A DNA stretch of 64,000 nt from an uncultured Oscillospiraceae bacterium (GTDB lineage: Bacteria > Bacillota > Clostridia > Oscillospirales > Oscillospiraceae). The stretch's first letter is position 1; the number at the start of each line of letters is the position of its first letter. The stretch lies in contig CANRNF010000003.1 in NCBI GenBank assembly GCA_947631865.1, positions 16,595-80,594 of the forward strand, read 5' to 3'. The notes beneath the pieces are model-generated. The model did no database searches. It was given only the letters and a program-made list of their open reading frames with translations, and was not told the DNA's origin. Of this stretch, positions 6,850 to 42,200 are shown in pieces. Made by a program: the position numbers and the translations under genes.

Positions 6850-6975
6850 TAACTTGGAGAGATGTTTTGAAGAGAACGGTGTGTATGTGCGGCCGGTTCA
6901 TTGATCCTTTATGGCCCTAATGGAGCGCAGGTGGTATTCATTAGGACATAAGGCCCGCTGTGAGGAGGTATGTCT

Positions 6976-7707
6976 ATGCGGATCGCGGTCTGCGACGATG
7001 ACCTGCGGGAGATGGAACAATTTGAGGACGCCCTGCAGGGATGGGACCCGACCAGGAAAGCGGAGAAGTTTATGGACGGCGCTTCGCTGCTGGAGGCGGC
7101 CAAAGACGTACCCGGCTTCGATATCGTGTTTTTGGACATCTACATGCCAGGAGAAAACGGCGTTGACATCGCGAAGCGGCTGCGGGAGATATCGCCTGAG
7201 ACGGGTATCGCCTTCGTCACCACCAGCACGGAGCACGCGGTGGAGGCGTTTTCCCTGCACGCGCTGCATTATCTTGTCAAGCCGGTGACGACCAGGGGCG
7301 TGGTGGAGGCCTTCCGGCGGCTGACGGAGATCCGGAAAAGTCAGCGGGAGCGGATATCGTTCGCTGTCGGCACGAACCGGATCACGGTGTTTCTGGATCA
7401 AATCTGCCTGCTTGAAAACGACAACCATGTGGTGAACGTCTCCCTGTCCGACGGACGGCGGCTGAAGGTATGGATGAGCTTTGGCGAGCTGGAGCGAAAG
7501 CTGAGCGGGAGCTTTTTGCGTATCAACCGGGGGATCATCGTCAATATGGACTATATCGCCCAAATGGGGGCTGACACCTGTACCCTGCGGGACGGGAGCC
7601 GGCTGCCCATCGCCGTACGGCAGAGCGCTGCCATCCGCGCGGCCTATGACGACTATGTGTTCGACCAGCTCTCCCGGCGAAAGAGCTTTTCGGAGGTACA
7701 GCCATGA
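6976..7707 (+). CDS. LytTR-family (AgrA/ComE-like) response regulator
   Basis: The receiver domain shows CDDD, FLDIYMPGENG and LVKP. A C-terminal LytTR DNA-binding domain follows. ATG 6976 lies 7 nt after GAGGAGG; an alternative ATG is at 6970. Confidence 0.88.
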   Translation: MRIAVCDDDLREMEQFEDALQGWDPTRKAEKFMDGASLLEAAKDVPGFDIVFLDIYMPGENGVDIAKRLREISPETGIAFVTTSTEHAVEAFSLHALHYLVKPVTTRGVVEAFRRLTEIRKSQRERISFAVGTNRITVFLDQICLLENDNHVVNVSLSDGRRLKVWMSFGELERKLSGSFLRINRGIIVNMDYIAQMGADTCTLRDGSRLPIAVRQSAAIRAAYDDYVFDQLSRRKSFSEVQP

Positions 7708-9089
7708 GCGTGGGCGTGTATCTGCGTAACGCGGCAGGCTTCTTTCTCGAGATATTCCCCTGCGTGATGTTGGTCTTCCTGCCCTTTTCGGAGGAGTCGT
7801 TCCGCTTTCACAGAAAGCGCGTCCTTCTCGGGGAGGCGGCCGCGGTAACGGTGCTGTCGGCTCTGTTCCCGGCGGCGATGTACGCCGCGGCGCAGCGGGA
7901 CATGGCGGTGGCCGCCAATATCTTCATGGGCGCCGTCATATTGCTCACGCTCATCGCGCAGGGCTGGCTGATACGGGAGGCCCCGATCAAGAAGACCATG
8001 GCCGTGTTCGCGGTGGTATTTTACGGCGTGACACAGTACTGGCTGGTGAACATGCTGATCGGCGCCGTGTCCGGGCTGGTCCCGCTGTCTCAGGAACTGG
8101 AGAACTGGTCGGTATATTCCCCCTGCGGGCTGGCGATGTACGCGGTCACGACGGTGATCCTGCTGCCGCTGATGCTCCTTCTGGTGATCCAGCCGCTGAG
8201 CGAGTATCTCCAGGAGATAGAGACAAAAAAGATGCGCCAGGAGTTCTTTATCCTGGCGGCGACCACGGTGGTATTCCTTCTGCTGGTCATGGCGGCTGAC
8301 ATCAGCTACTATCGTGTGGGGTACCGGGCGTATCACCGGGAACTGCCCCAGCTTCTGGTGGCGCTGATGGACCAGCTGGCCATCTATTGGCTGATCTTCC
8401 GGGAGTCCGTGTGGCGCAAACGGGACAGCGACCACCAGCGGGCTCTGGAGATACAGCAGCTCCAATATGAAAAGATCGTCAGCGATATGGAGAACACCCG
8501 GCGGATGAGCCATGACCTGCGCCACCACTACAGCTCTCTGAACGAGATGCTTCAGGACGGCAGGCTGGATGAGATGAAGCGCTATCTCTCCCAGGTGCTG
8601 GACGACAACGCCAAGCGGATGAACGAGGTCTACTGTGAGGACATGGCGGTCAACGGGCTTTTGCAGTACTACGCGGGCGTCGCCCGGGCGGAGGGGATAC
8701 GCTGCGACATCCAGGCCCAGTGCGACAACGTGACCATCGCCCCCACGGATCTGACGGTGGTGTTCGGCAACGCCATGGAAAACGCCGTCAACGCCTGCCG
8801 GAAGTGCGGCCAGGACCGGTGGATCCTCGTGCGCGTCGGCACGGTGCAGGGTTCGCTGGCCATCGAGATATCCAACGCCTGCAGCGGCGTGTGCATCAGC
8901 CGCCGGGAGCAGACCGAGGATGGCTTCCTGCCCGCGGAGGCGTTTTTGAGTGAGCGGGCCAACGGCGGGTACGGCCTGCGCAGTATCGCCCAGACCGCCC
9001 AGAAATACGGCGGCAGCGCCAGGTTCCGGTATGACGCCGGGGAGGATACGTTCACATCCCGTATCCGGTTGAATATGCCCACGGAATGA
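7704..9089 (+). CDS. AgrC/ComD-like (HPK10-type) membrane sensor histidine kinase
   Basis: 461 aa with about 6 N-terminal TM segments. It has an H-box SHDLRHH, an N-box FGNAMENAVNA and a G-box GGYGLRSI. An ATGA overlap couples it to the regulator gene. Confidence 0.85.
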   Translation: MSVGVYLRNAAGFFLEIFPCVMLVFLPFSEESFRFHRKRVLLGEAAAVTVLSALFPAAMYAAAQRDMAVAANIFMGAVILLTLIAQGWLIREAPIKKTMAVFAVVFYGVTQYWLVNMLIGAVSGLVPLSQELENWSVYSPCGLAMYAVTTVILLPLMLLLVIQPLSEYLQEIETKKMRQEFFILAATTVVFLLLVMAADISYYRVGYRAYHRELPQLLVALMDQLAIYWLIFRESVWRKRDSDHQRALEIQQLQYEKIVSDMENTRRMSHDLRHHYSSLNEMLQDGRLDEMKRYLSQVLDDNAKRMNEVYCEDMAVNGLLQYYAGVARAEGIRCDIQAQCDNVTIAPTDLTVVFGNAMENAVNACRKCGQDRWILVRVGTVQGSLAIEISNACSGVCISRREQTEDGFLPAEAFLSERANGGYGLRSIAQTAQKYGGSARFRYDAGEDTFTSRIRLNMPTE

Positions 9090-9205: not shown

Positions 9206-9388
9206 ATGTCCGAAGAGAAGAAGAACGAAGTCCAGGAGCAGAACGAGCTGAACGAGAACGATCTGGACGGCGTGTCCGGCGGCGCCTTTGCCGAGGTAAA
9301 CCCGCTGAGCATGGGCCGTAATGTCCTCAGGACCACTGAAGACGGAAGGGCTGACGGCCCCATGACCAGCCGCTCCAACATTCGGTGA
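9206..9388 (+). CDS. A1: GG-leader peptide, Cys-free 34-aa core; candidate signalling peptide
   Basis: MSEEKKNEVQEQNELNENDLDGVSGG|AFAEV... SD AAGGAGG lies upstream. The gene sits directly downstream of the kinase. Confidence 0.7.
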   Translation: MSEEKKNEVQEQNELNENDLDGVSGGAFAEVNPLSMGRNVLRTTEDGRADGPMTSRSNIR

Positions 9389-9422: not shown

Positions 9423-9629
9423 ATGATGAACGTAAACACCATGGACACCCGGCTCAGGGCGCTTTTTGACCGCCAGAGGAAGGTCAGCGATCCGCGCATG
9501 GCGCGGCTCATCGGGGAGACAGAGACCCGGTGGGGCGCGCCCATCGCGGACGACGACCTGGGATCGGTGGCGGCGGCGGGCGACCCGGACGCAGGCCAGA
9601 GAAAAACACCCTGGGATGAGCGCAGATGA
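9423..9629 (+). CDS. Hypothetical 68-aa protein translationally coupled to the sigma factor gene
   Basis: SD GGGAGGA lies upstream. Its stop overlaps the sigma start (ATGA). No family was recognised. Confidence 0.5.
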   Translation: MMNVNTMDTRLRALFDRQRKVSDPRMARLIGETETRWGAPIADDDLGSVAAAGDPDAGQRKTPWDERR

Positions 9630-10099
9630 TGGACGGGGAAGAGCTGTACCTGCGGTACAGGGATAAGGTCCTGGCCTATATCCGCGCCAGGGTGGAAAAC
9701 GAACAGGACGCGGAGGACCTTTGCTCCACCGTCTTTATGAAGGCGTGGGCAAACCTGCCGGATTATGACGGGCAGAGGTCCTCTGTCTCCACATGGCTTT
9801 TTTCCATCGCCCACAACGCGATCATCGACTTTTACCGCGGCCGGCGGCCGGCGGCCGAATTGGACGAGACGGTGCCGGCCCCGGAGCGGGACCCGGAACT
9901 GGAGGCCCTGGCGGAGGCGCTGGAGGCCCTGCCGGAGCGGGAGCGGGACGTGATCGTGCTGTACTACTACCACGGACTGACCCTGAAGGAGATCGCGGTC
10001 CACATGCGCCTTGCCTACAGCACGGTGAAGCTCTGCCACAGCCGGACGCTGGAGGCGCTCAGACAGATGATGGGCGGAACAGAGGCCCTGAAGATATGA
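9626..10099 (+). CDS. Sigma-70 family, ECF-like RNA polymerase sigma factor
   Basis: 157 aa containing only region 2 (DAEDLCSTVFMKAW, STWLFSIAHNAIIDFYR) and region 4 (LPERERDVIVLYYYHGLTLKEIA). Confidence 0.85.
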   Translation: MMDGEELYLRYRDKVLAYIRARVENEQDAEDLCSTVFMKAWANLPDYDGQRSSVSTWLFSIAHNAIIDFYRGRRPAAELDETVPAPERDPELEALAEALEALPERERDVIVLYYYHGLTLKEIAVHMRLAYSTVKLCHSRTLEALRQMMGGTEALKI

Positions 10100-10132: not shown

Positions 10133-10429
10133 ATGGAGCAGAAAGTGATCGAGGAATTCCTGGAAAAGGCGAAGCAGGCAAAGAGCCCGGAGGAGATCAA
10201 GGCCGCCGCGAGGGCGTGCGGTCTGGAGCTGACGGCGGAGAAGCTCACGAAGCTGGACGGCGCGCTTTGTGGAGCGAAGGGCGAGCTGTCCGACGAGGAC
10301 CTGGACGGCGTCGCCGGCGGGAAGCAGAACCTGGAGTATGGCACCCCTGAGTTTTGGCACTATGTAGACGAACAGATCCAAAAATACGGACCGAGTGTCG
10401 TCCCCGCTTTGATGGCGACCTATATGTAA
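10133..10429 (+). CDS. N1: Nif11-like-leader GG precursor, Cys-free core
   Basis: MEQKVIEEFLEKAKQAKSPEEIKAAARACGLELTAEKL...ELSDEDLDGVAGG|KQNLEYG... matches the Nif11 leader architecture. Confidence 0.8.
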   Translation: MEQKVIEEFLEKAKQAKSPEEIKAAARACGLELTAEKLTKLDGALCGAKGELSDEDLDGVAGGKQNLEYGTPEFWHYVDEQIQKYGPSVVPALMATYM

Positions 10430-10482: not shown

Positions 10483-10716
10483 GTGGACGACAACGAGAAC
10501 AAAAAGAGCGGTGAAGAGCTGGCCGACGAGGCCCTGGACAAGGTGGCCGGCGGCGGGTTAATGCGTAAGCCATGCTGCTTTATATGCGGTCGGGACGACA
10601 TTCCCCTGGGAGAGGGTTCCTACCGTGCGGCGGATTATGGAAGATCCATTTCCTATATCTGCGAGGCTTGCTTAAAATCCAACTACGGCCCGGAATGGAC
10701 ATGGCGCAAACTTTGA
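10483..10716 (+). CDS. A2: short-GG-leader precursor, zinc-ribbon-like core (class i)
   Basis: GTG start after AAAGGGGAGG. Leader (M)DDNENKKSGEELADEALDKVAGG; core has CFIC...YICEAC. Confidence 0.8.
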   Translation: MDDNENKKSGEELADEALDKVAGGGLMRKPCCFICGRDDIPLGEGSYRAADYGRSISYICEACLKSNYGPEWTWRKL

Positions 10717-10749
10717 TGGCCGGGTGACCCGGCAGAGAGGAGAATTATC

Positions 10750-11055
10750 ATGGAGCAGAAGAAGATCGAGGAATTCGTGGAAAAAGCGAAGCAGGCCAAG
10801 AGCCCGGAGGAAGTGGAGGCCGCAGCGAAGGCGTGCGGGGTGGAGCTGACGGCGGAGAAGCTCGCGAAGCTGGAGAAATCCCTCCGCGGAAAGAAGGGCG
10901 AGCTGTCCGACGAGGAGCTGGCCGGCGTTTCCGGCGGGGCGGTGGATCCGAGCACGACCGATTGGCTCGCTGAGCAGCTCGTTGAGCAGTTCAAAGAGCA
11001 GATCAAAGACCTCGACCCGGAATTCTTGGAATTGCTGAAGCTGGCTTTGTCCTGA
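10750..11055 (+). CDS. N2: Nif11-like-leader GG precursor, Cys-free amphipathic core
   Basis: Its leader is nearly identical to N1. ...ELSDEELAGVSGG|AVDPSTTDWLAEQLVEQFKEQI... Confidence 0.8.
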   Translation: MEQKKIEEFVEKAKQAKSPEEVEAAAKACGVELTAEKLAKLEKSLRGKKGELSDEELAGVSGGAVDPSTTDWLAEQLVEQFKEQIKDLDPEFLELLKLALS

Positions 11056-11078
11056 AAGACGGGAACAGGAGAAACGAC

Positions 11079-11345
11079 ATGGACAACAGCGAGAACAAAA
11101 AGAGCTACGAGGAACTGGCCGACGAGGCATTGGACAAGGTGGCCGGCGGTGGCTGGGAATGGCTATGGGGAGACTCATCGCCCAGAGTGACCCCATGCGG
11201 CATTTGCCGCGGAACTGAGGAGCAAGCTATATTATATACGATCGATTTCGGCAACGGCGGCAGCTCCGGGATGTACTTGTGTTCCAAGTGCCTCGCGGAC
11301 GAAAGGAAAAAATATAAAGTGACCGAAGGCTGGGGCGGGAAATGA
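11079..11345 (+). CDS. A3: short-GG-leader precursor, zinc-ribbon-like core (class i)
   Basis: Leader MDNSENKKSYEELADEALDKVAGG; core has PCGIC...YLCSKC. Confidence 0.82.
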   Translation: MDNSENKKSYEELADEALDKVAGGGWEWLWGDSSPRVTPCGICRGTEEQAILYTIDFGNGGSSGMYLCSKCLADERKKYKVTEGWGGK

Positions 11346-11399
11346 CGTGCGCGGAATTGTCCGAAGGCTGCCATTGCTGACGAAAGGAAAGGAAGAGCT

Positions 11400-11618
11400 A
11401 TGAATCAAGACGAAAATAAAAAAAGCGTTGAAGAACTGGCGGACGAGGCCTTGGACGCGATAACGGGCGGGAAGAGGGATGAATACGTACGCCCCACGGT
11501 CACCTGTCCCAAGTGCCATCAGCAAAAAGAGAGGCTGGTGACATGCCGTGACCCGAAGGATCCGACAAAGCGTGAGTCCATGTGCCCCGACTGTGCCCGC
11601 GATCTCGGGTATGTGTGA
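11400..11618 (+). CDS. A4: short-GG-leader precursor, zinc-ribbon-like core (class i)
   Basis: Leader MNQDENKKSVEELADEALDAITGG; core has CPKC...MCPDC. Confidence 0.8.
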   Translation: MNQDENKKSVEELADEALDAITGGKRDEYVRPTVTCPKCHQQKERLVTCRDPKDPTKRESMCPDCARDLGYV

Positions 11619-11650
11619 TGACCGTCCCGGACGGAGAAAGGAGAGACATC

Positions 11651-11863
11651 ATGGAAAACAGCGAGAACAAAAAGACCCCGGAAGAGCTGGCCGACGAGGC
11701 GTTGGACAAGGTGGCCGGGGGGGAGTACGGTGGGGATTTTGTTGTACTCAACTGCAGATCCTGCCGCCACCATAACAATGACTGTCCCTACGGAACTCCG
11801 CTGGGTGCCGTGTTAGAATTGAAACCATCGTATTGGACACTGTGCCCAAGCAAGGAGGCTTGA
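11651..11863 (+). CDS. A5: short-GG-leader precursor, class ii Cys core
   Basis: Leader MENSENKKTPEELADEALDKVAGG; core has NCRSC...DCPY...LCP. The internal ATG is preferred over the track start 11582 because of the SD and the leader alignment. Confidence 0.78.
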   Translation: MENSENKKTPEELADEALDKVAGGEYGGDFVVLNCRSCRHHNNDCPYGTPLGAVLELKPSYWTLCPSKEA

Positions 11864-11866
11864 CCG

Positions 11867-12112
11867 ATGAACGACAGCGAGAACAAAAAGAGCGGTGAGG
11901 CCTTGGCCGACGAGGCGCTGGAAAATGTGTCCGGGGGGAGCGACGATGTTTTTTTTACAATTATAAGTTTTAGGAACAATTTTAAAAGCAGAAACAATTG
12001 CACGTCCTGCAACAGCTATTACAGGAGCAACTGTCTGCTAAAGCTTACTGTTGAAGGACTCTACGATAAGTTTAGCGGGGACAATAACGCGATGTGCCCT
12101 TACAAGACGTAA
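11867..12112 (+). CDS. A6: short-GG-leader precursor, class ii Cys core
   Basis: Leader MNDSENKKSGEALADEALENVSGG; core has NNCTSC...NC...AMCPYKT. The core DNA is locally AT-rich. Confidence 0.78.
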   Translation: MNDSENKKSGEALADEALENVSGGSDDVFFTIISFRNNFKSRNNCTSCNSYYRSNCLLKLTVEGLYDKFSGDNNAMCPYKT

Positions 12113-12138
12113 GACAGGGCCGAAAGGAGAAAACGGAC

Positions 12139-12378
12139 ATGAGCGACAGCGAGAACAAAAAGACCCCGGAGGCCCTGGCCGACGAGGCGCTGGACGCGGT
12201 GGCCGGCGGGAGCAGCAGATTTGACGCGCTCCTTAAGGGGGGAGCCTGCGCGGACTGCCCACGGATCGACGAGAGCGTTCATATGTATGATGTGATATTC
12301 GACGGCAGCAGCATGTCCATCTATCTCTGTCCCGATTGCGTTGCCAAACGCCGCCAAAGAGGACAAGTGGTTCGGTAA
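12139..12378 (+). CDS. A7: short-GG-leader precursor, zinc-ribbon-like core (class i)
   Basis: Leader MSDSENKKTPEALADEALDAVAGG; core has CADC...YLCPDC. The start at ATG 12139 is chosen by SD and leader alignment. Confidence 0.8.
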   Translation: MSDSENKKTPEALADEALDAVAGGSSRFDALLKGGACADCPRIDESVHMYDVIFDGSSMSIYLCPDCVAKRRQRGQVVR

Positions 12379-12406
12379 GCGCGCAGACAGCGGAAAGGAG
12401 AGCGAC

Positions 12407-12682
12407 ATGAACGATAGCGAGAATAAAAAGACCCCGGAGGAGCTGGCCGACGAGGCGCTGGAGAAGGTGTCCGGAGGCGGGCTCTCCTGGGGCGGCCTTG
12501 TACTACCGGACCCGCTGGAGGACATTTTCGCTGAGAAGTGCCATAAGTGCGGGAAAAAGCCCGGTCGGCAGTATACCCTGTACTATCCGACGCCGTTCGG
12601 CCCCAGGATCGAGACCTGCTGCGACGACTGCGCCGAACTGTTCAGACAAACGTATGGAGGCGAAGCGATCCCCGTCGACTGA
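12407..12682 (+). CDS. A8: short-GG-leader precursor, zinc-ribbon-like core (class i)
   Basis: Leader MNDSENKKTPEELADEALEKVSGG; core has CHKC...CCDDC. Confidence 0.8.
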   Translation: MNDSENKKTPEELADEALEKVSGGGLSWGGLVLPDPLEDIFAEKCHKCGKKPGRQYTLYYPTPFGPRIETCCDDCAELFRQTYGGEAIPVD

Positions 12683-12709
12683 CGGCAGACAGCGGAAAGG
12701 AGAACGACT

Positions 12710-12961
12710 ATGAATGATAACGAGAACAACAAGAGCATGGAGGCTCTGCCCGACGAGGCCCTGGACAAGGTGACCGGCGGTGATGGATTGACATATCTGC
12801 CTTTCAAGATCCCATGCCACAGGTGCCCCAGATGTGACGAGACCGTGATGTATTATACGATCAAAGACGAAAGCGGTGGGTACGGGATGAACCTGTGTCC
12901 CGACTGCGTCGCGGAACTCAGGAAAGATCATACGGTGTACGAAGGCTTTCATCTATTCTGA
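12710..12961 (+). CDS. A9: short-GG-leader precursor, zinc-ribbon-like core (class i)
   Basis: Leader MNDNENNKSMEALPDEALDKVTGG; core has CHRCPRC...NLCPDC. Confidence 0.82.
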   Translation: MNDNENNKSMEALPDEALDKVTGGDGLTYLPFKIPCHRCPRCDETVMYYTIKDESGGYGMNLCPDCVAELRKDHTVYEGFHLF

Positions 12962-12981
12962 CGCCGGGAAAGAGGACGACA

Positions 12982-13172
12982 GTGAATAACGAACGCAAAC
13001 GTGTACCCCCCGAAGCGCTGGACGACGATGCCATGGACAGGGTCGCCGGGGGAGGATCACTCTCAGACGGACAGGGGTTCTACCACTGTAAAAACTGCGG
13101 TGCGCAGTTCACAAAAACCAGATCGTGTATGGCCGCCGTCTCAGCTGCCCCAGCTGCGGGGCATGGCTGTGA
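12982..13172 (+). pseudogene. A10: frameshifted GG-leader precursor (class i); single-A deficit in A5 run at 13113-13117
   Basis: GTG start, (V)NNERKRVPPEALDDDAMDRVAGG...FYHCKNCGAQFTK. With one more A the frame reads NQIVYGRRLSCPSCGAWL-stop at 13172, parallel to A11. As written the frame runs on into A11. Confidence 0.65.
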
Positions 13173-13202
13173 TATAAATGATTATATAAGGGGAGAACGA
13201 AC

Positions 13203-13391
13203 ATGGATAACAACGAGGACAAAAAGAGCGGTGAAGAGCTGGTGGACGAGGCGCTGGACAGGGTCGCCGGCGGGAGAATATACCAAGACAGACACGGGAT
13301 CCTCTACTGCGATAGCTGCGGTGCGTCTTTCCTGGCAGAACACCTCCAGACTATGCGCCGTCTCCACTGCCCCTACTGCGGGGCGGAATAA
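13203..13391 (+). CDS. A11: short-GG-leader precursor, zinc-ribbon-like core (class i)
   Basis: Leader MDNNEDKKSGEELVDEALDRVAGG; core has YCDSC...HCPYC. Confidence 0.8.
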   Translation: MDNNEDKKSGEELVDEALDRVAGGRIYQDRHGILYCDSCGASFLAEHLQTMRRLHCPYCGAE

Positions 13392-13424: not shown

Positions 13425-14201
13425 ATGAAGCGGAGCGCGGGATACTTTATGGCGCTGGCCCTGACGGCGGCGCTCATCCTGGGCGCGGCCACGCCGGCGC
13501 TGGCGGCGGAGAATTTTTCCGACGAGATGAAATTCGACGACGGGGCCGATATCAGCCCCGCTGACGGCGCGGACAGCGTGGAGCGGGCGGGGGACCACGA
13601 GGACAGCCCCTACTTCCGCCACCCGGATTTTTATAACATGACCTCCACCGACAGTCTGACCATCCTGACGAACTTCAAGACCATACAGCAGTCCAGCGAG
13701 TGGAGCTGCGGCGTGGCCTGCGTGCTGATGACGCTGGAGTGGTACGGCCTGCGGGGGGACTACGACGAGGAGAGCCTGGCTCAGCTGCGGCCCCAGGGGA
13801 TGGAGCCCGTGGCTACCACCATGAGCCAGATGGTGGGCCTTTTTGATTCAGTAGGCGGCTTTGATTGCTACTCCGCCATCGACGCGGGGGAGGACGCGGC
13901 GGATATCTTCACTTTTGATTACATCCAGGAGACCCTGGCGAACGGCGACCCCATCATCATCGGCTGGAACGACTGGGGCGCCCACTGGCAGATCATCATC
14001 GGCTACGACGACATGGGCACCGAGGTGACCCAGGACGACGTGATCATCGTGGCCGACCCCTATGACACCACCGACCATGACCAGGACGGCTACGGCATCT
14101 ATCCCGCCGAGCGGTTCCTGTATAACTTTACATTCTACGATTACTTTGACGAGGGCGAGCTGAACGACATGTGCTTCCTCGTCGCCAGACCCGCGGCCTG
14201 A
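13425..14201 (+). CDS. Secreted papain-fold, C39-like cysteine peptidase
   Basis: Signal peptide MKRSAGYFMALALTAALILGAATPALA. The order Q..SSEWSCGVACVLM ... GAHWQIIIGYDD ... ADPYD matches the Gln/Cys/His/Asp layout of C39-type peptidases. SD AAGGAG lies 7 nt upstream of ATG 13425. Confidence 0.6.
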   Translation: MKRSAGYFMALALTAALILGAATPALAAENFSDEMKFDDGADISPADGADSVERAGDHEDSPYFRHPDFYNMTSTDSLTILTNFKTIQQSSEWSCGVACVLMTLEWYGLRGDYDEESLAQLRPQGMEPVATTMSQMVGLFDSVGGFDCYSAIDAGEDAADIFTFDYIQETLANGDPIIIGWNDWGAHWQIIIGYDDMGTEVTQDDVIIVADPYDTTDHDQDGYGIYPAERFLYNFTFYDYFDEGELNDMCFLVARPAA

Positions 14202-14258: not shown

Positions 14259-17222
14259 ATGATGAAAAGGAACATTTCCAAGGTACTGAGCGCGCTGCTG
14301 CTGGCGGCGCTGCTTGTCAGCGTATGTCCCTTGGCGGGACTGGCGGCGGAGCCCGCGCCCGCGGCTACGGCAGAGCCGGAGGCCACGGCGGGACCCGAGG
14401 CCACGGATGAGCCTGAGGAGACAGCGGAACCTGAGGCCACGGACGGACCCGAAGCTACGGATGAGCCGGAGGCCACGGATGAGCCCGAGGAGACGGCAGA
14501 ACCGGAGGTCACGGACGAACCCGAATCCACGGATGGACCCGAAGCTACAGATGAGCCCGAGGCCACGGATGAGCCCGAGGTCACAGACGAACCTGAAGCC
14601 ACGGATGAGCCGGAACCCGCCGCGGCCGGTGATCCCGCGGTGCGGATCACGGCGGGCGGCGAGAGCCGGGAGTATGCCTCCATCGACGAGGCGTGGGCGG
14701 CGGCCGTCCAGGCCGGAACGGCCACGGTGACCCTTCTGGCGGATGTGACGGCCCAGGATGTACTTACCGTCCCGGCGGGCGCCTCCATCACCCTTGCCGG
14801 CGGGGAAAACACGCTGACGACGGCCTGTATCCGTGTGGACGGCGGCGCGCTGACGGTGGCCAGCGGCACGGTCCAGGATGCGGGCGACGGCTCCACCGAC
14901 AAAATGGGCGCGATCAATATCCAGGCCGGCCGCCTCACGGTGAACGGCGGCACGATGCGCGGGCTCAATGCCGGCGTCTATTGCTATGGCGGTGAGACGA
15001 CCGTCAACGGCGGCGTGATCTGCGGTGAAAACGGCGGTCTCGCCGTCACGGACGCGGACAGCCTCACGGTGAACGGCGGCGACATCTCCGGCGGTTTCGC
15101 CGGCATCGCCACTACGGGCGATAACAGACCTACTATCAACGGCGGCAGCATCAGCGGCAAGGGCGGGAGCGGCGTGAGCATGGGCTTCGGGGTCATTGCC
15201 TATAGCGGCTTGGTGCTCACCGGCGGCGAGATCAGCGGCGGCGACGCCGGCGTCCTGAGCATGGGCGATACGACGGTCACGGGCGGCAGCGTCACCGGTA
15301 CGGATGGCTTCGGCCTGCTGATAGGGGAGGAGGGCTCGGCGTCTCTGTCCGGCGGCACATACGCCGGCGTGAGCGGCGCCGTGAGCTGCGGCGGCTCCGT
15401 GCTGGGCGAGGACTTCCAGTCGGACCTGACGGTGAATGACCTGCTGGCCGATGGGTACGGCTGGTACGGCGCGGACGGCGCGCGTCTGACCCCGGCGGCG
15501 GACGAGAAGGCCCTGGAAGGGCCTGTGACGGTGCGCCCCCTGCCCGTGACGCCGGTGCTGAAGGTGGCGGGGGAGAACGTGCTTTTGTCCTCCGACCCCA
15601 CGGATATCGATCATGAATATGACGCGCCTCTTACGGACGGGGCGCTGATCGAGGGCGGCGCGGGCCGCATCGTGGTCCCGGCGGAATATGTGGTACAGTT
15701 CCCCGGCGAGGGCGTGGAGGCCACCGAACGCTACAGGTACGACAACCGCTATGAGCCGGACACGCTCATCTACCACCGGTACACCTTTGAGATCACCGAC
15801 CCCACGCTGACGGAGGTCACCGTGACTGTGTCCCCCAACCCAGACCCGCCCATGTGGACGAAGGTCATCTCCCATACATACGCCGATTTCTCCTGGAGCG
15901 TGACCGACTGCGCCAACAATAGGCACACCTACAACCACGCCGACGACGAGAGCACGATCTACGCGGCGGAGGACGCGGGCGGCGTGACCCTGAACCTGAG
16001 CAAGACGGAGGGCGCGGAGCCCCTGATGAAGATAGGCACAGCGACAGACATCGGCGGCGGCAAGTATACCCTTTACAGCGAGAACGGCGTGATCGAGTTC
16101 ACGCTGGCGCCCGGCAGCATCCGGGTCAACGTCACCGGCGAGACGGAGGGGCTTATCCGGGCCTCCGAATACGTGATGGACAGATACGGCGAGAACTACT
16201 TCCGGGTATATGTCAAGCCGGGCTACACCGTGGTCCCTGCGGATGAGAATACCCAGGTGACCGCGGGCTATACCAGCGAGAACGACGACGGATCGGATCG
16301 CCTCCACTACCATGTGAACGCGGACGCGGCGGCGGAAAAGGGCCTTGACAGCGTCACGGTGCGCCTTGAGAAGATCACCTCTGCCACCCTCTCTGTCAAT
16401 GAGCCGGACGTTCTGCTGGCGGCGGACCCCAACGGCAGCGGCAAAAGCCCCATCCTCACCGACGGGGACGTCATCCCGCCGGAGGGCGGGTGGCTGCTCA
16501 CCAGGTCGGACTGGTGGTTCAGCGGCGACAACGACGAGTATGCCTATGATTGGCGGGACGCGGCCTACGGTGAGCCCGGCAGCGAGATATACGATTGGAC
16601 CTATATCTATCCCCTGAAAAACGGCGTGGTGAACGTCACGATGGAATCGGTCGACGAACCGGCCCATTGGGCGGAAGTGACCGTTGATAACCCCGGCCTC
16701 AGGGACCTTTACATGCACGCTTATACCGGCGGTCAGGGAGCGCAGTTCAATTCCGATACGTATCATGCGTCGATGATCGTGTCGTACTATTTGTATATCG
16801 AAAACACAGATGGCTCGCTCCGTAAAGCCGCCGATATCACCGATATGGTTGGTATCCAGAGTGTAGAGGAACACTCCGACTATCTCATGCTGTACGTGGA
16901 CCCGGCGGCGGAGAAGATATCCTTCACCGTGAAGGCTCCCGCGGGCACTATCACACCCATACCGGGACCCACGGCGACGGCTGCCCCGACCGCGACGGCA
17001 GCACCCACGGCGACGGTTGCGCCCACGGCGACGGCAGCGCCCACGGCGACGGCAGCACCCACCACGGCGCCCGCCGCCACGGCGGCGCCCACCACGGCCC
17101 CCGGGGCAACCAGCCCCGCGACGGGAGATGAGACGGCATTTATCCCCTGGCTGCTGGCGCTTCTCGGCTGCGGCGCCGCCCTCGCGGTGGTGACGGCCTG
17201 CCGGCGGCGGGAGAGAAGATAA
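14259..17222 (+). CDS. Cell-wall-anchored surface protein with acidic EPEATD repeats, parallel beta-helix-like Gly-rich repeats and a sortase-type sorting signal
   Basis: 987 aa with a signal peptide. It has periodic NGG-x-I-x-GG repeats. The C-terminus is SPATG + hydrophobic segment + RRRERR, as in (S/P)PxTG sorting signals. Confidence 0.7.
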   Translation: MMKRNISKVLSALLLAALLVSVCPLAGLAAEPAPAATAEPEATAGPEATDEPEETAEPEATDGPEATDEPEATDEPEETAEPEVTDEPESTDGPEATDEPEATDEPEVTDEPEATDEPEPAAAGDPAVRITAGGESREYASIDEAWAAAVQAGTATVTLLADVTAQDVLTVPAGASITLAGGENTLTTACIRVDGGALTVASGTVQDAGDGSTDKMGAINIQAGRLTVNGGTMRGLNAGVYCYGGETTVNGGVICGENGGLAVTDADSLTVNGGDISGGFAGIATTGDNRPTINGGSISGKGGSGVSMGFGVIAYSGLVLTGGEISGGDAGVLSMGDTTVTGGSVTGTDGFGLLIGEEGSASLSGGTYAGVSGAVSCGGSVLGEDFQSDLTVNDLLADGYGWYGADGARLTPAADEKALEGPVTVRPLPVTPVLKVAGENVLLSSDPTDIDHEYDAPLTDGALIEGGAGRIVVPAEYVVQFPGEGVEATERYRYDNRYEPDTLIYHRYTFEITDPTLTEVTVTVSPNPDPPMWTKVISHTYADFSWSVTDCANNRHTYNHADDESTIYAAEDAGGVTLNLSKTEGAEPLMKIGTATDIGGGKYTLYSENGVIEFTLAPGSIRVNVTGETEGLIRASEYVMDRYGENYFRVYVKPGYTVVPADENTQVTAGYTSENDDGSDRLHYHVNADAAAEKGLDSVTVRLEKITSATLSVNEPDVLLAADPNGSGKSPILTDGDVIPPEGGWLLTRSDWWFSGDNDEYAYDWRDAAYGEPGSEIYDWTYIYPLKNGVVNVTMESVDEPAHWAEVTVDNPGLRDLYMHAYTGGQGAQFNSDTYHASMIVSYYLYIENTDGSLRKAADITDMVGIQSVEEHSDYLMLYVDPAAEKISFTVKAPAGTITPIPGPTATAAPTATAAPTATVAPTATAAPTATAAPTTAPAATAAPTTAPGATSPATGDETAFIPWLLALLGCGAALAVVTACRRRERR
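14349..14618 (+). repeat. In-frame 18-nt tandem repeats encoding (E/G)PE(A/E/V/S)T(D/A) x ~15
   Basis: Direct reading of repeated gagcc[c/g]gaggccacggat units. Confidence 0.85.
16968..17100 (+). repeat. In-frame 18-nt tandem repeats encoding PTATAA linker
   Basis: cccacggcgacggc[a/t]gc[a/g/c] units repeated about 5 times, followed by PTTAP variants. Confidence 0.8.
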
Positions 17223-17248: not shown

Positions 17249-17413
17249 ATGAACGATAAAGAGAACAAAAAGACCCCGGAGGAACTGACCGACGAGGCGG
17301 TGGACACCGTCGCGGGCGGCGCGCTCGGCCTCGTCACCCCGCAGACACTGACCCAGGAGGAGATCGACGCCCTGCTGGCGGGGCAGAAAGAGGACAGCCA
17401 GAAGAAGCGGTAA
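17249..17413 (+). CDS. A12: short-GG-leader precursor, Cys-free 30-aa core
   Basis: MNDKENKKTPEELTDEAVDTVAGG|ALGLVTPQTLTQEEIDALLAGQKEDSQKKR. It lies immediately upstream of the giant Sel1 gene. Confidence 0.72.
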   Translation: MNDKENKKTPEELTDEAVDTVAGGALGLVTPQTLTQEEIDALLAGQKEDSQKKR

Positions 17414-17462
17414 ACACATATCCCGCCCCATGCCGGGCGGACAGCGAAAGGGAGGTACATTT

Positions 17463-20400
17463 ATGAGCATCAAAAAGACGTTGGCGCTGCTTTTGGCGGC
17501 GGTCATGCTGCTGGCAGTGTGCGCGGGCTGCGGAAAGACGCCCGAGCAGATGGTGGACGAGGCGGCGAAGGCCCTGGCAGAGGGCGACGGCGAGAAGGCC
17601 GTGAAGCTGCTGACAAAGGCCGGGGACAAGGACTACGCTCCCGCCGACGCGGTGCTGGGCGGCCTGTATGTTACCGGCGAGGGCGTGGAACAGGACTACG
17701 CCAAGGCCATGGAGCTGTACCAGTCGGCCGCGGACGGCGGCGATGCCGCGGGTCTGACCGGCATGGGCGATCTGTACGCCAATGGCATGGGCGTGGAAGT
17801 GGACAAGGCGAAGGCCTTCGAACTGTACTCCCAAGCGGCGGAGCAGGGCGACATAGCCGGCCAGACGGCCGTGGGCCGGTTCTATGACTACGGCTACGAC
17901 GTGGTGGATGTGGATTATACCGAGGCGGCCCGGCTGTACGAGCTGAGCGCGGAGGCGGGCGACCCCATGGCCGCGCTGTCGCTGGCCTGGCTTTATGACC
18001 AGGGCCAGGGCATGGAAGAGGACCACGACAAGGCCGGGGAGTACTTTGCCCAGGCCCTGGCGGGCGTCACGGAGAGCGGCGGCCCGTACGAGGGCGAGCC
18101 CTATATCCTGGGCCAGCTCTACTTCGGCGGCTACAGCGTGGAGCAGGACTACGACAAGGCGCTTGAATACTTTACCACCGCGATGGAGCAGGGCTCCTTC
18201 GAGGCGGAGCGGATGCTGGCTATGATGTACGTGTACGGCTACGGCGTGGACGTGGACATGGATAAGGCCGTCGAGCTTCTCACCGACGCCGCGTCCCACG
18301 GGGTGTATGATACCGCTTACGTGCTGGGCATGAACTGCCTGGGCCTGGTGAACGAGACCGGCGAGGGGTTTGAGCCTGACTACGCCGAGGCGGTCAAGTG
18401 GCTGGAAATGGACGCGGCGCTGGACCATCCGGCGGCGGAAACCTGGCTGGGCGACATGTATATGTACGCCAACGGCGTGGAGATGGACAAGGCAAAGGCC
18501 CTGGAGTACTACACCCAGGCGGCGGAACAAGATGACGCCTATGGCCAGTACATGATGGGCAACATCTATGACGCCGGCTACGGCGTGGTGGACGTGGACG
18601 AGGCCACGGCCGTGGAGTGGTATGAAAAGGCCGCGGCGCAGAATGAGGCGGAGGCCATGTATCAACTGGCCGCTCATTACGAGGAAGGCCTGGGCGTGGA
18701 GAAGGACGAGGCCAAGGCCCAGGAGCTCTTTGACAGCCTTGCCGCCCAGCTCACCGCGAAAGACGAGAGCGAGCTGTACTCCGCCGAAAAGCGGGTCCTG
18801 GGCTATCTGTACGGGGAGGGCCAGGGCGTAGAGGAGGACGACGTCCGTGCCGCGGAGCTTATGACCGCCGCGGCGGAGAAGGGCGAGGCGCGGGCCATGT
18901 ACGACCTGGGCTGGCTGTATGAAGAAGGCGAGGGCGTGGAACAGGACTACGCCAAGGCCATGGAATGGTACGGCAAGGCGGCGGAGCACGGCGTGCGCAA
19001 GGCGATGTACTCTCTGGGCCTGATGTACCTCTACGGCGAAGGCGTGGAGGTGGACTACGATCAGGCGATGCAGTGGTTTGAAAAGTCAGCGGAGCAGGAG
19101 GACTCCTACGCGCTGTACGCCGTGGGCTGGATGTACGGTCAGGGCTACGGTGTGGAGAAGGACCCGGACAAGACCGTGGAGTACTATACCCAGGCGGCGG
19201 AGCTGGATAACCCCCAGGCGCTGGTGGCTTTGGGCCGCATGTACTACTCCGGCGATGATGTCGAACAGGACTATGACAAGGCCAGGGCGCTCTTTGAGCA
19301 GGGCGTAGAGCTGGACGATCCCTACAGCGAGGTGTATCTGGCCGATATGTACATGTACGGCGAAGGCGTGGAGGAGGATTATACCCAGGCGCGAGAGCTG
19401 TACGAGCAAATCCTGACCCATGAGGACGCCGATGACGACCTTATAGGCTACGCGGCGGAGAACGACGGCTGGTTCTATGAGTACGGCATGGGCGTGGAGA
19501 TGGATAAGGCCAAGGCCTTTGAACTTTACACCCAGTCCGCGGAGCTGGGCTATGTGGACGGCCAGACCTCTCTGGGCCGGTTCTACGACTATGGCTACGG
19601 CGTGGTGGACAGAGACTATGCCCAGGCCGCGGAGTGGTACCAGAAGGCCGCGGACCAGGGCGACGCCGAGGCGATGCTGTATCTGGCCTGGCTCTATGAG
19701 CAGGGCGATGGCGTTGAGCAGGACGAGGCCAAGGCCGAGGAACTCTATACCCAGGCCTTCGAGGCTGCCTCGGAGGACGAGGACTACAGCTACAACCAGC
19801 TGGTGCTGGGCTACCTTTATCTGGACGGCACCGGTGTGGAGCAGGACTATGCCAAGGCCCTGGAATACCTCACCGCGGCGGCGGAGGACGATATCTTCGA
19901 GGCCGGGAGTGAGCTGGGCATGATGTACCTCAATGGTCTCGGCACGGAAAAGGACGAGGCCAAGGGCCTGGAGCTGCTGGAAGACGCGGCGGCTCACGGC
20001 GTGCCTGTGGCATACAACTACCTGGGCCACGCCTATGCGGACGGCACCGGCGTGGAGCTTGACTATGAAAAGGCCCGGGAGCTCCTGGAACAGGGCGAGG
20101 CCCTGGGGGACCCCTACGTGTGCTACTATCTGGCCGACATGTACATGTACGGTCTGGGCGGAGATGAGGACTATGCCAAGGCGCGGGAGTACTATGAGCA
20201 GGTCCTGGCACTCCCCGAGCAGGACGACGACGATCTGGGCTACGCCGCGGAGAGCGACGGCTGGTTCTACGAGTACGGCATGGGCGTGGAGATGGATAAG
20301 GCAAAGGCCTTTGAGCTTTACACCCAGTCCGCGGAGCTGGGCTATGTGGACGGCCAGACCTCTCTGGGCCGGTTCTACGACTACGGCTACGGCGTAGTGG

Positions 20401-22859: not shown

Positions 22860-23120
22860 ATGAATAGCAGCAAAAACGAAAAGAATTTTGAAGAGCTGTC
22901 CGACGAAGCCCTTGACAAGGTGGCCGGAGGCTGGGACGAGGACGAGGTATTGGAGGCTGGGCCATGGGTAGCGAAGGCTCCCCTGACCGATGATGAAAGA
23001 TACGGCGATCACGAGTGCGGCAACTGCCACAGAAGGCATATCAACGCCTCGAACGGCATGTTGAGAGACGACAACGTATGGTTTTGCAACGGCTGCTGGT
23101 ACACGATCAGCGGTTGGTAA
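22860..23120 (+). CDS. A13: short-GG-leader precursor, zinc-ribbon-like core (class i)
   Basis: Leader MNSSKNEKNFEELSDEALDKVAGG; core has ECGNC...FCNGC. Confidence 0.8.
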   Translation: MNSSKNEKNFEELSDEALDKVAGGWDEDEVLEAGPWVAKAPLTDDERYGDHECGNCHRRHINASNGMLRDDNVWFCNGCWYTISGW

Positions 23121-23138
23121 AGATGAAGGGAGGCAGAG

Positions 23139-23405
23139 ATGATAGACAACAAGGACAAAAGGGAGCTGTCCGACGAGGCCATGGATGAGGTGGTGGGCGG
23201 TTCGATCCGACTCCCCACTTCTGTGACGGCCGCTTATTTGAGCGATCCGTCTCAACCGCATACCGTGTGCGACAGATGCCACGGTACATTTGCCGCGGGC
23301 GTGGTCACAGAGCACGCGGTGAGCTCCGGCTATCTTTGGCTCTGCCCGGCTTGCGTCCAGGCTTACAAGGACGCCGGTCTGTACTTTCACAAAGCCGATA
23401 TATAA
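23139..23405 (+). CDS. A14: short-GG-leader precursor, zinc-ribbon-like core (class i)
   Basis: Leader MIDNKDKRELSDEAMDEVVGG; core has VCDRC...LCPAC. Confidence 0.78.
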   Translation: MIDNKDKRELSDEAMDEVVGGSIRLPTSVTAAYLSDPSQPHTVCDRCHGTFAAGVVTEHAVSSGYLWLCPACVQAYKDAGLYFHKADI

Positions 23406-23433
23406 GAAGGAGCAGCGGTAAAAGGAGAAGGCT

Positions 23434-23700
23434 ATGAACGACAACGAGAACAGGAAGAGCATGGAAGAGCTGGCCGACGAGGCGCTGGACGCCGTGTCCG
23501 GGGGAGCGGTATCAAAAGAGACTCTAGATGAGGAGAAATGGTATTGCTTTTTTCAGGGATTTCAGTCGCTGAATAATTGCTGCAATTGTCAGTCAGACTG
23601 GGATTTCACCTGTCAGCTCTTCGATATGGATCCAGAGGCGAGATACAATATGTTCGGCGGGAACCAGTTCGCGAAGTGCCCGTATTTCAGGAGCATGTAA
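23434..23700 (+). CDS. A15: short-GG-leader precursor, class ii Cys core
   Basis: Leader MNDNENRKSMEELADEALDAVSGG; core has NNCCNC...TC...AKCPYFRSM. Confidence 0.8.
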   Translation: MNDNENRKSMEELADEALDAVSGGAVSKETLDEEKWYCFFQGFQSLNNCCNCQSDWDFTCQLFDMDPEARYNMFGGNQFAKCPYFRSM

Positions 23701-23723: not shown

Positions 23724-23756
23724 GTGAACGACAGCGGGAACAAAAGAGCAGCGTAG
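23724..23756 (+). pseudogene. Truncated leader remnant (VNDSGNKRAA-stop)
   Basis: gtgaacgacagcgggaacaaaaga matches the 5' end of A19 (atgaacgacagcggaaacaaaagg) but stops after 10 codons. Confidence 0.5.
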
Positions 23757-25120: not shown

Positions 25121-25363
25121 ATGAACAACAACGAAAACAGAAAGGCTCCCCAGGAGCTGACAGACGAGATGCTGGACGCGGTGGCCGGAGGCGGGCGCCA
25201 GGCCGATAGCTCTGACGCGTATTTTTGGCAGCAGTTTCGGAACAACAACGACTGCCTGCATTGCAAGAACAGCTGCCCGTATATTTTCATGTCGCCCGAG
25301 GAGAGGAGCATTACCTTTGGCAGAGACCCCAACGCGAAGTGCCAGTATTACAAGAGCATGTGA
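25121..25363 (+). CDS. A16: short-GG-leader precursor, class ii Cys core
   Basis: Leader MNNNENRKAPQELTDEMLDAVAGG; core has NDCLHC..SCPY...AKCQYYKSM. Confidence 0.8.
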   Translation: MNNNENRKAPQELTDEMLDAVAGGGRQADSSDAYFWQQFRNNNDCLHCKNSCPYIFMSPEERSITFGRDPNAKCQYYKSM

Positions 25364-25383
25364 GACCGAAGGGAGAGCAAACT

Positions 25384-25629
25384 ATGGAAAACAGCGAGAA
25401 CAAAAAAGCTCCGGAAGAGCTGACGGACGAGATGCTGGACAAGATCGTCGGCGGAGCCGATACACCAGATAAGGATGCCATTCTGGCGTGGGCCATGCAG
25501 TTTGGTATGAACAACTGCTTGCGATGCAAGGGCATGACGACCAGCCAGTGCAGTTACTATCATGGGCCGGTGGACGTCTACCTGATGGGGTTGAAGGCCT
25601 CCGACACCTGCCCCGGATTCATATCCTGA
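25384..25629 (+). CDS. A17: short-GG-leader precursor, class ii Cys core
   Basis: Leader MENSENKKAPEELTDEMLDKIVGG; core has NNCLRC...QC...DTCPGFIS. The internal ATG 25384 is chosen by leader alignment. Confidence 0.78.
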   Translation: MENSENKKAPEELTDEMLDKIVGGADTPDKDAILAWAMQFGMNNCLRCKGMTTSQCSYYHGPVDVYLMGLKASDTCPGFIS

Positions 25630-25645
25630 TGAAGGAGGCGCCGTC

Positions 25646-25915
25646 ATGAGCGACAACGAGAACAGGAAGAACAGCGAAGAACTGGCGGACGAGGCGCTGG
25701 ACAATGTCGCGGGAGGCATCACGCCCGAGCAATGGGAGCAGGCGCGGCAGCAGGCGCTTGCGCAGTATAAGGATCCATGCATCGTGTGCAAGACGACGGA
25801 AGGCGTGAAGTACTACGCCTACAGGAACAAGGTGGGATGCTACGGCGCTCAGTATTTCTGCCCGGCCTGCCGTGATCTGAAGATCCAGCAGGGATATGAG
25901 GTGTGGGAATACTGA
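25646..25915 (+). CDS. A18: short-GG-leader precursor, zinc-ribbon-like core (class i)
   Basis: Leader MSDNENRKNSEELADEALDNVAGG; core has PCIVC...FCPAC. Confidence 0.8.
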   Translation: MSDNENRKNSEELADEALDNVAGGITPEQWEQARQQALAQYKDPCIVCKTTEGVKYYAYRNKVGCYGAQYFCPACRDLKIQQGYEVWEY

Positions 25916-34600: not shown

Positions 34601-34610
34601 CAGACGCGAT

Positions 34611-38293: not shown

Positions 38294-38306
38294 AAGGGGA
38301 GACACC

Positions 38307-42186: not shown

Positions 42187-42200
42187 GGGGGTGCGCTGCA

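Follow-up and report, generated by a model that had tools for sequence, protein, structure and literature searches.

A candidate family of cysteine-rich double-glycine-leader peptides, predicted to be exported by a C39 transporter and probably folded around a metal ion, in an uncultured Oscillospiraceae bacterium

To our knowledge, the known bacteriocins, and the known peptides that are ribosomally synthesized and modified post-translationally (RiPPs), are stabilized either by disulfides or by cross-links that dedicated enzymes install. Among the described systems closest to the one considered here are peptides with a double-glycine (GG) leader that leave the cell through an ATP-binding cassette (ABC) transporter that contains a peptidase (PCAT), such as ComC and BlpC with ComA and BlpA, or PCAT1 and its cargo CtA in Clostridium thermocellum; the specificity of PCATs resides in the leader, and the transporter cavity takes a cargo of 66 residues (PMC6959990). 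A three-gene transporter has likewise been tied to the NHLP/Nif11 peptides by phylogenetic profiling (Haft et al. 2010, PMC2887384), and in published cases NHLP/Nif11 leaders and their exporter often accompany modified peptides (PMC2887384). Here we analyse a stretch of 64,000 nucleotides (the window) on contig CANRNF010000003.1 of an uncultured Oscillospiraceae bacterium from rabbit gut, in which ten tandem small leader-bearing open reading frames (ORFs), nine of them intact and one a pseudogene, occupy positions 10483-13391 on the + strand. With a probability of roughly 0.6, we suggest that this array encodes the precursors of a lineage-specific GG-leader family that is regulated by an extracytoplasmic function (ECF) sigma factor, exported by a C39 transporter, left unmodified, folded around a metal, and bacteriocin-like. 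It is well supported that we are dealing with a GG-leader, PCAT-exported family which has an ECF-type regulon of its own and no maturase dedicated to it nearby; its products would apparently be secreted, unmodified peptides of a bacteriocin-like but as yet undescribed kind, held by a metal ion.

The array has much in common with the GG-leader/PCAT peptides: a short acidic leader with hydrophobic residues at positions -4, -7 and -12, a nearby C39-ABC exporter, several precursors per locus, an adjacent LytTR/histidine-kinase pair, and no modifying enzyme. It departs from them in its cores, which are hydrophilic modules with Cys4 or Cys3His knuckles where the described peptides form cationic amphipathic helices, and also in the lack of small membrane immunity genes, in its ECF-sigma-type promoter, and in a two-subunit exporter of the NHLP type. 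The latter points to the NHLP/Nif11 systems (PMC2887384), with which the locus shares an exporter that passes both TIGR03796 and TIGR03797, and Nif11-type leader genes in the same operons; with the prochlorosins in particular it shares a large paralogous family of one leader and many cores, scattered over several loci. The 24-residue leader of the array has no Nif11 domain, however, no LanM, cyclodehydratase or radical S-adenosylmethionine (SAM) enzyme was found in the window, and the cores look like autonomous metal-binding folds, not like substrates for cross-linking.

Three further comparisons concern the cysteines. Zinc ribbons and treble clefs (TFIIS/RPA12, ClpX, rubredoxin-type) resemble the cores in having two CxxC motifs 16-24 residues apart that, in the cores by prediction, flank a β-hairpin, with the second knuckle at the start of a helix, in the CPxCG-type knuckles of some members, and in the occurrence of Cys3His variants. 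They differ in that the cores pass no family model and have no ClpX-specific similarity, and in that they come with a secretion leader and an extracellular location is predicted for them; as far as our literature searches found, zinc ribbons are not known to work outside the bacterial cell. Glycocins such as sublancin, and disulfide-stapled GG bacteriocins, share the GG leader, PCAT export and four structural cysteines. Glycocins are, however, built on a nested C-x6-C...C-x6-C helix hairpin and come with a glycosyltransferase and thiol-disulfide oxidoreductases; in the window, scans returned neither type of enzyme, and the cores have CxxC...CxxC instead. Sactipeptides and ranthipeptides (subtilosin, ruminococcin C, SCIFF), finally, are also Cys-rich ribosomal peptides of Clostridia with several cysteines in the core, but they require an adjacent radical-SAM/SPASM enzyme, of which the window shows none, and their Cys patterns and leaders are different as well.

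Each of the ten array genes is preceded by a GGAG-type ribosome-binding site at a distance of 6-10 nucleotides, and each carries a 24-residue leader that ends in Gly-Gly and is followed by a Cys-rich core of 38-67 residues. A DNA consensus of the leader, allowing for up to three mismatches, matched 18 times in the 64-kb window and not once in 100 shuffles. The ten tandem paralogues of the original prediction are thus no product of chance, but only nine are intact, since the gene at 12982-13172 (GTG start) is a frameshifted pseudogene whose repaired core reads ...YHCKNCGAQFTKNQIVYGRRLSCPSCGAWL. A sequencing error was ruled out as the cause of this frameshift because the identical lesion, in a run of A, is found in two independent metagenome assemblies (L001 and L036); the L036 copy has in addition an extra frameshift and a stop codon. 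Where 13 leader genes had been counted for the whole window, a hidden Markov model of the leader finds 20 genes with the short leader, the ten others being 17249-17413, 22860-23120, 23139-23405, 23434-23700, 25121-25363, 25384-25629, 25646-25915, 44478-44708, 44752-44976 and 45024-45242 (here and below, every gene given with both its ends lies on the + strand, with one exception stated as such). The genes from 22860 to 23700 and from 44478 to 45242 code for Cys4 precursors and those from 25121 to 25915 for Cys-rich ones. To these are added three genes with Nif11-type leaders. One, at 10133-10429, has a Cys-free core and passes TIGR03798 with 35.1 bits (cut-off 32.3); a second at 10750-11055, with a helical acidic core, is a candidate on the basis of its leader end, ELSDEEL-x-GV-x-GG, in common with the first; both are part of the same array. 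The third is found at 25994-26233.

The leader has the consensus M-x-D-x-E-N-K-K-x-x-E-E-L-A-D-E-A-L-D-x-V-A-G-G and an acidic character. Gly-Gly stands at -2/-1, and Val or Ile at -4, Leu at -7 and Leu at -12 are invariant or almost so across 17 members, with -15 variable; positions -4, -7 and -12 are those read by the C39 peptidase domain in the structure of PCAT1 with its substrate (PMC6959990). By these features it is a classical double-glycine secretion leader, which the original prediction had not recognized as such. The Nif11-type leaders of the same operons end in E-L-S-D-E-D-L-D-G-V-A-G-G, with the same motif as the short leaders, so that the last 13 residues are common to both kinds. 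Existing models capture the short leader poorly: of the nine array peptides one passes Pfam ComC (20.8 against 20.4 bits) and the rest fall under the cut-offs of ComC, Bacteriocin_IIc and TIGR01847; the nine intact genes reach no more than 12.4 bits with TIGR03793 (cut-off 50.9) and give no match with TIGR03798; and there are weak matches of the leaders to the XyeA model of radical-SAM RiPPs.

Among the nine intact leaders the amino-acid identity is 71%, and “near-invariant”, as they had been called, is too strong. Conservation at the DNA level, which had also been claimed, is seen as an identity of 78%; the same codon is used at identical residues with a frequency of 0.69, against 0.60 expected from codon usage, and the DNA conservation thus adds little beyond what protein-level constraint and codon bias explain. 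Gene conversion within the array was considered as its source and rejected, because the codon identity barely exceeds the codon-bias expectation. Between paralogues, the DNA of the cores is 0.53 identical, against 0.52 for shuffled sequence.

What would hold the leader constant can be explained by what else is in the window: an exporter of the C39-ABC type, a regulon under an ECF sigma factor, and partner proteins that are extracytoplasmic by their signals. The exporter genes begin with a short HlyD-like membrane protein (39528-40004), which matches only the N-terminus of TIGR03794 (42.9 bits, cut-off 156). It is followed by an ABC transporter with a C39 peptidase domain (40012-42186; TIGR03796 at 951 bits, cut-off 853; Pfam C39 and ABC), in which Peptidase_C39 is found at 1.8e-32 with the catalytic Gln, Cys and His residues intact, and by an ABC partner that lacks the peptidase (42201-44399; TIGR03797, 731 bits with a cut-off of 709). 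Together these genes correspond to the three-gene transporter of Haft et al. 2010 (PMC2887384). Having passed the equivalog cut-offs, the genes from 40012 to 44399 are by sequence an ABC exporter pair of the NHLP/Nif11 type; three family members (44478, 44752 and 45024) directly follow them.

The cores were compared as a set of 182 distinct sequences from the window, its relatives and databases. They split into discrete homologous subfamilies, and are therefore not alike in their knuckles alone, as had been thought. Two CxxC knuckles 16-24 residues apart are found in 8 of the 10 array cores, so this part of the original prediction stands for most of the array, but not for two members. The knuckle-bearing genes include Group A cores at 11079-11345 (CxxC-x24-CxxC), 12139-12378 and 12710-12961, a Group A-like core at 12407-12682, a CxxC-x22-CxxC core at 11400-11618, a Cys5 core of the type CCxxC...x24...CxxC at 10483-10716 (GTG start; 100% identical to database protein P0010), and, at 13203-13391, a rubredoxin/zinc-ribbon-like core CxxCG-x14-CPxCG that has many weak matches to zinc-ribbon models, all below cut-off. 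The two others, at 11651-11863 (CxxC-x6-C-x19-CP) and 11867-12112 (NNCxxC-x7-C-x20-CP), form Group B and have the arrangement C-x2-C-x6-7-C-x19-20-C-P.

Conserved Cys columns number exactly four in every subfamily with at least four members (or three, with His as the fourth), and any extra Cys vary; four such Cys columns are counted in 13 subfamilies. Family-wide, the identity is 90% in the Cys columns and 65% in the others. His is the fourth ligand throughout a subfamily of the type C-x2-C...C-x2-H, in L022_4581 and L022_5088 of the “YYCPxC” subfamily (both reading YYCPYH), and in one Group A member (L017_2865, with LCPAH replacing LCPDC). An exchange from Cys to His requires two nucleotide changes. 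Such an exchange keeps a metal site and would abolish a disulfide or a thioether, which favours a metal over either of them. Outside these columns the cores evolve fast: dN/dS, the ratio of nonsynonymous to synonymous substitution rates, is about 0.3 for the leader, and for the core about 0.96 at low and 0.53 at higher divergence (rough figures, as the compared pairs are not independent). The pattern of a conserved leader with diversified cores is thereby borne out.

The structure of the 12710 product was modelled with AlphaFold2 from a 22-sequence alignment. The core is predicted with a local confidence score (pLDDT) of 78-92 and the leader with low confidence; strands 47-53 and 56-62 form a hairpin between the knuckles, and a helix at 64-70 begins at C63/C66, a predicted arrangement of knuckle, hairpin and helix that is treble-clef-like. 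A core-only profile run against 177,635 PDB sequences had as its best match the C-terminal, TFIIS-type zinc ribbon of RPA12 (E 5.6e-4), borderline at 22.9 bits in a small database. Against 1.84 billion representative proteins the core profile found 23 proteins. Some were family members; the others were leaderless proteins with one to five similar Cys4 modules, two of them behind N-terminal membrane segments. These two (P0211 and P0214) have two tandem Cys4 modules of the Group A core pattern after the membrane segments, while P0215, P0216 and P0218 are small leaderless Cys4-module proteins. No Pfam zinc-ribbon model was passed by the cores, and no Pfam or NCBIfam model of any kind by a Cys core when the peptides were scanned.

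The treble-clef or zinc-ribbon flavour that the original prediction had sensed in the cores is thus supported from several sides: the four ligand columns, the Cys-to-His exchanges, the predicted hairpin and helix, the RPA12 match and the leaderless Cys4 modules. The more specific relation to the zinc-binding domain of ClpX is not: PF06689 gave no match at E≤1, either with the peptides or with the cores alone, no ClpX chain was among the PDB sequence matches at E≤10, and Foldseek returned no significant match. Based on conservation and modelling, we favour cores that are metal knuckles, probably for zinc, over disulfides or thioethers, as a still unproven reading.

Expression of the family appears to be under common control. 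The motif GGCCCTTT-N13-CGTATA has four exact copies in the window where 0.22 are expected, all on the + strand: P1 (9117-9143) lies about 60 nucleotides upstream of the first gene of the first operon, and P2 (22802-22828), P3 (25063-25089) and P4 (44419-44445) each lie just upstream of a peptide operon. It is also present in 14 loci of relatives; in 11 relative loci checked by coordinates, with 12 copies of the motif, a GG-peptide start follows about 10-60 nucleotides downstream of every copy but one. The CGT-containing -10 element is one that we take to resemble those of ECF-sigma promoters. An ECF-type sigma-70 factor is encoded at 9626-10099 (Pfam Sigma70_r2/r4; TIGR02937 at 103 bits, cut-off 42.9), with a 68-residue ORF (9423-9629) overlapping the start of the gene, and is probably the cognate sigma factor for the motif; its position inside the first operon suggests autoregulation. 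There is no + strand terminator-like site within the array, and it is probably co-transcribed with the sigma gene. The first operon also holds a GG-leader peptide with a different leader and a Cys-free core (9206-9388; weak bacteriocin-leader matches only), a candidate pheromone or simply what the operon produces first. Directly preceding that operon are a LytTR response regulator (6970-7707, from Pfam) and a GHKL/HATPase_c_5 histidine kinase (7704-9089, from Pfam) with six hydrophobic segments predicted to be membrane helices, a synteny kept in L001, L002 and L036, and we consider the pair a candidate peptide-sensing two-component system. All GG-peptide operons would then form one ECF-type regulon, of which the motif and the genes can be read from the DNA, and the regulatory links between them are what we infer. 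A further copy of the motif with one mismatch, at 46621, stands upstream of a NUDIX gene, to judge from its sequence possibly an isopentenyl-diphosphate isomerase.

We thus suggest the following sequence of events. The operons would be transcribed from the ECF-sigma-type promoters (GGCCCTTT-N13-CGTATA), and the LytTR/histidine-kinase pair may control the sigma factor. The C39 domain of the exporter (40012-44399) would then recognize the leader, cut after Gly-Gly and export the core of 38-67 residues; signal and machinery for this step are both present, and cleavage and export are assumed from the established biology of PCATs. The cores, enzymatically unmodified, would fold as small zinc-ribbon or treble-clef-like modules around a single metal ion (Zn2+ being the most likely) bound by four ligands that are conserved as Cys4 or sometimes Cys3His, as conservation, the exchange of Cys for His and structure prediction suggest. 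Outside the cell, we speculate, these fast-evolving hydrophilic mini-proteins might act as bacteriocin-like effectors of competition or recognition.

Several observations weigh against this proposal. PCAT cargo has been seen unstructured inside the transporter (PMC6959990), so that either metal loading and folding would take place outside the cell, or the cavity must fit a folded domain. A Foldseek comparison of the 12710 model with the PDB gave no significant match (best E 1.2), and the RPA12 match is borderline, as stated above. Group B cores have no PDB sequence match, no Pfam match and no homologue outside the same leader family; with one CxxC and two lone Cys, disulfides or another bound partner are conceivable for them. 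Hydrophilic as they are, with net charges from -7 to +3, the cores are, going by their sequences, unlike pore-forming class II bacteriocins; nor does the array contain small membrane immunity genes. A maturase might be encoded elsewhere in the genome, given that the search covered the 64-kb window and 8-kb pieces of the relatives, and the uncharacterized acyltransferase that directly follows three of the peptide genes (see below) stays a caveat. Metal binding by the cores, their cleavage and their export, in addition, are all things that we infer.

The explanation that survives best beside a metal is that of unmodified class II bacteriocin-like peptides with two disulfides formed after export, comparable to pediocin-like bacteriocins and glycocins, and with no metal; we regard it as unlikely. 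Secreted Cys-rich peptides are usually disulfide-bonded, and extracellular products are predicted here; the conserved cysteines are even in number, four per subfamily, as would fit two disulfides, and the spacing in Group B is not that of a classical double knuckle. On the other hand, the exchange of Cys for His at the fourth ligand, seen in three separate subfamilies, would destroy a disulfide each time. CxxC pairs that flank a hairpin are the arrangement of zinc knuckles, and it is zinc ribbons that the profile matches; no thiol-disulfide oxidoreductase gene was seen in scans of the window, and the host, a gut Oscillospiraceae bacterium, is presumably a strict anaerobe in a reducing habitat.

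A little less likely again, in our view, is that the genes are RiPP precursors whose cysteines are substrates of a maturase elsewhere in the genome, either a radical-SAM sactipeptide/ranthipeptide synthase or a prochlorosin-like LanM, with the leader also serving as the element that the enzyme recognizes. True Nif11-type leader genes are interleaved with the array and the exporter is of the NHLP/Nif11 type, which makes the analogy to prochlorosins drawn in the original prediction closer than was thought at the time; many diverse Cys-rich cores on one leader are the prochlorosin pattern, and the leaders have their weak matches to the XyeA model. The analogy fails with regard to the enzyme, as the search brought up no lanthionine synthetase. 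When the window's larger ORFs were scanned with Pfam and NCBIfam, they showed no radical-SAM enzyme, LanM, LanB or LanC, YcaO, glycosyltransferase or thiol-disulfide oxidoreductase, in agreement with the earlier view that no recognized modifying enzyme is nearby; 19 loci from six related genomes showed no RiPP maturase either, and the CxxxCxxC motif is absent from their unmatched ORFs. Exactly four conserved Cys with His at the fourth position are the signature of a metal site and would make no sense for thioether chemistry, and AlphaFold2 predicts a confident globular fold.

The one enzyme that could be cited in favour of modification is a cytoplasmic protein of 432 residues with an HxxxDG motif (45305-46603), encoded directly after three of the peptide genes. 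It has no Pfam, NCBIfam or PDB sequence match, but its AlphaFold2 model (pLDDT 89.8), searched with Foldseek, has the fold of condensation/BAHD/PapA5 acyltransferases. About 120 clusters of homologues exist, none of them annotated. We do not count it as a peptide-modifying enzyme, and assign it to a GH3/MatE/STAS module, because distant homologues adjoin STAS, GH3 and MatE-kinase genes, with no GG peptides there, and because the same gene set is found at 32852-39488 in the window. That set (+ strand) consists of a MatE-HATPase_c_2 kinase fusion, a GH3 acyl-amido synthetase, a SpoIIE phosphatase-HATPase_c_2 fusion and a STAS-APH-type kinase fusion; it has the look of a partner-switching module linked with a pathway for small-molecule conjugation and export, and it recurs in locus L089.

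That the peptides are secreted to scavenge or buffer metal, in the manner of a zincophore, with metal binding as their function and not as a structural staple, seems improbable to us. A four-ligand thiolate site in every subfamily, predicted export and many copies in one regulon would suit such a role. For chelation, however, neither many subfamilies nor a non-ligand surface that diversifies so rapidly (core dN/dS 0.5-0.96) would be needed; the loci contain no metal-uptake transporter or metal-responsive regulator that we could find, and control is apparently exerted through a kinase of the peptide-sensing type and an ECF sigma factor. Least of all do we believe in small intracellular zinc-finger proteins with the conserved N-terminus as a regulatory or interaction tag, for even though leaderless Cys4 modules do occur in small proteins (P0215, P0216 and P0218), the N-terminus bears all the marks of a GG leader, its last 13 residues are those of the Nif11-type leaders in the same operons, and a matching C39-ABC exporter is directly followed by three family members.

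If the peptides are indeed exported and folded around a metal, the proteins encoded beside them may be those that they meet outside. Directly after the array is a secreted C39-like cysteine peptidase (13425-14201) with a signal peptide and with Gln, Cys and His present (Peptidase_C39_2 at 27 bits, cut-off 24), and then a surface protein of 987 residues (14259-17222) with a signal peptide, Pro/Thr/Glu-rich linkers, a C-terminal membrane anchor and weak β-helix matches. A lipoprotein of 1783 residues (17430-22781) has 34 Sel1 repeats (Pfam) and a lipobox-type signal; a second, secreted protein (23783-25045) has eight (Pfam), and its signal peptide is near-identical to that of the C39-like peptidase. 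Sel1-repeat proteins, the C39-like peptidase and the 987-residue protein recur beside peptide genes in the 19 loci of the six related genomes, as do ABC genes, two-component and sigma genes, and the 432-residue protein. Divergent homologues of the 1783-residue lipoprotein adjoin arrays in nine relative loci. No neighbours accompany the peptide genes more constantly than the Sel1-repeat proteins (in the window and in L005, L045, L046, L056, L057 and L070), with lengths of 389-2159 residues and only 38-60% identity. We can only speculate that the Sel1 lipoproteins, the C39-like peptidase and the surface protein are partners of the peptides in binding, immunity or processing.

One member of the family, at 17249-17413, has the same leader on a conserved Cys-free core of 30 residues, which in this peptide and its homologues reads ...PQTLT.EE...LLAGQ.E..Q.KR. 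Its gene stands directly upstream of that for the giant Sel1 protein, and its homologues in L037 and L046 are directly upstream of a Sel1-repeat gene; a peptide of this type could be a signalling peptide.

With regard to evolution, when the window is compared with close relatives (L036/L019), 16 pairs of orthologues show more divergence in the leader (dS 0.21, dN 0.09) than in the core (dS 0.06, dN 0.03), a difference of about threefold in dS. That orthologous leaders differ more than their cores implies that leaders have been swapped among paralogues; besides its other role, the conserved leader seems to serve as a handle for recombination. The remains of a truncated leader (VNDSGNKRAA followed by a stop) at about 23724-23753, immediately upstream of the gene for the small Sel1 protein, indicate either recombination in the past or the decay of a family member.

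The family is, by our searches, rare, with about 100 protein clusters, and confined to Oscillospiraceae of the rabbit gut. A leader-profile search of 5.8 billion proteins yielded 83 clusters, none of them meaningfully named or assigned to Pfam. A degenerate DNA pattern of the leader, scanned against one genome per species, gave 84 matches, of which about two thirds, in GC-rich Actinobacteria and Proteobacteria, are due to chance and were disregarded; true members were found only in uncultured Oscillospiraceae from rabbit gut, in six “Lapin” bins, several of which have arrays of 5-12 genes. In the literature we found no description of zinc-ribbon or zinc-binding GG-leader peptides or bacteriocins, and an atlas of class II bacteriocins of the human gut mentions neither zinc nor Oscillospiraceae. 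In three loci of rumen Ruminococcaceae or Clostridia metagenome-assembled genomes (L029, L062 and L063), a similar GG leader, ending ...LADEALE-x-VSGG, is joined to two repeats that follow the pattern GxYGNG..R...L..AGY....VQ..VN and presumably resemble the Cpl-7/CW_7 cell-wall-binding repeats; if they truly are such repeats, a GG leader would there be exporting a peptidoglycan-binding module.

Going further, and only tentatively, these might be the first secreted zinc-finger peptides: an unmodified, fast-diversifying library that a strict anaerobe exports by the GG/PCAT route and stabilizes with metal instead of disulfides or cross-links, with the leader as the recombination handle for shuffling cores and the giant Sel1 lipoproteins as partners in binding or immunity. 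We hold this fuller picture to be somewhat less probable than not.

One other gene in the region deserves mention: on the - strand at 47330-50728 a single polypeptide of 1132 residues unites a pair of solute-binding domains with a permease and an ABC ATPase, and is an all-in-one ABC importer of the amino-acid type.

Genome mining that looks for maturases or for cationic amphipathic cores would miss families such as this one. With its promoter motif, probable sigma factor, exporter and about 20 substrates, the locus is a self-contained experimental system, and its products are a possible scaffold for engineering, in that they would offer export-competent, genetically encoded, metal-stapled domains of 40-60 residues with naturally hypervariable loops. 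Should the metal be wrong, what is left is a large regulon of GG peptides in an uncultured gut lineage, one that had not been annotated before. If the cores do fold around a metal, they would represent a third way to stabilize a secreted peptide, one that needs no tailoring enzyme and suits the reducing, anaerobic environment of the gut.

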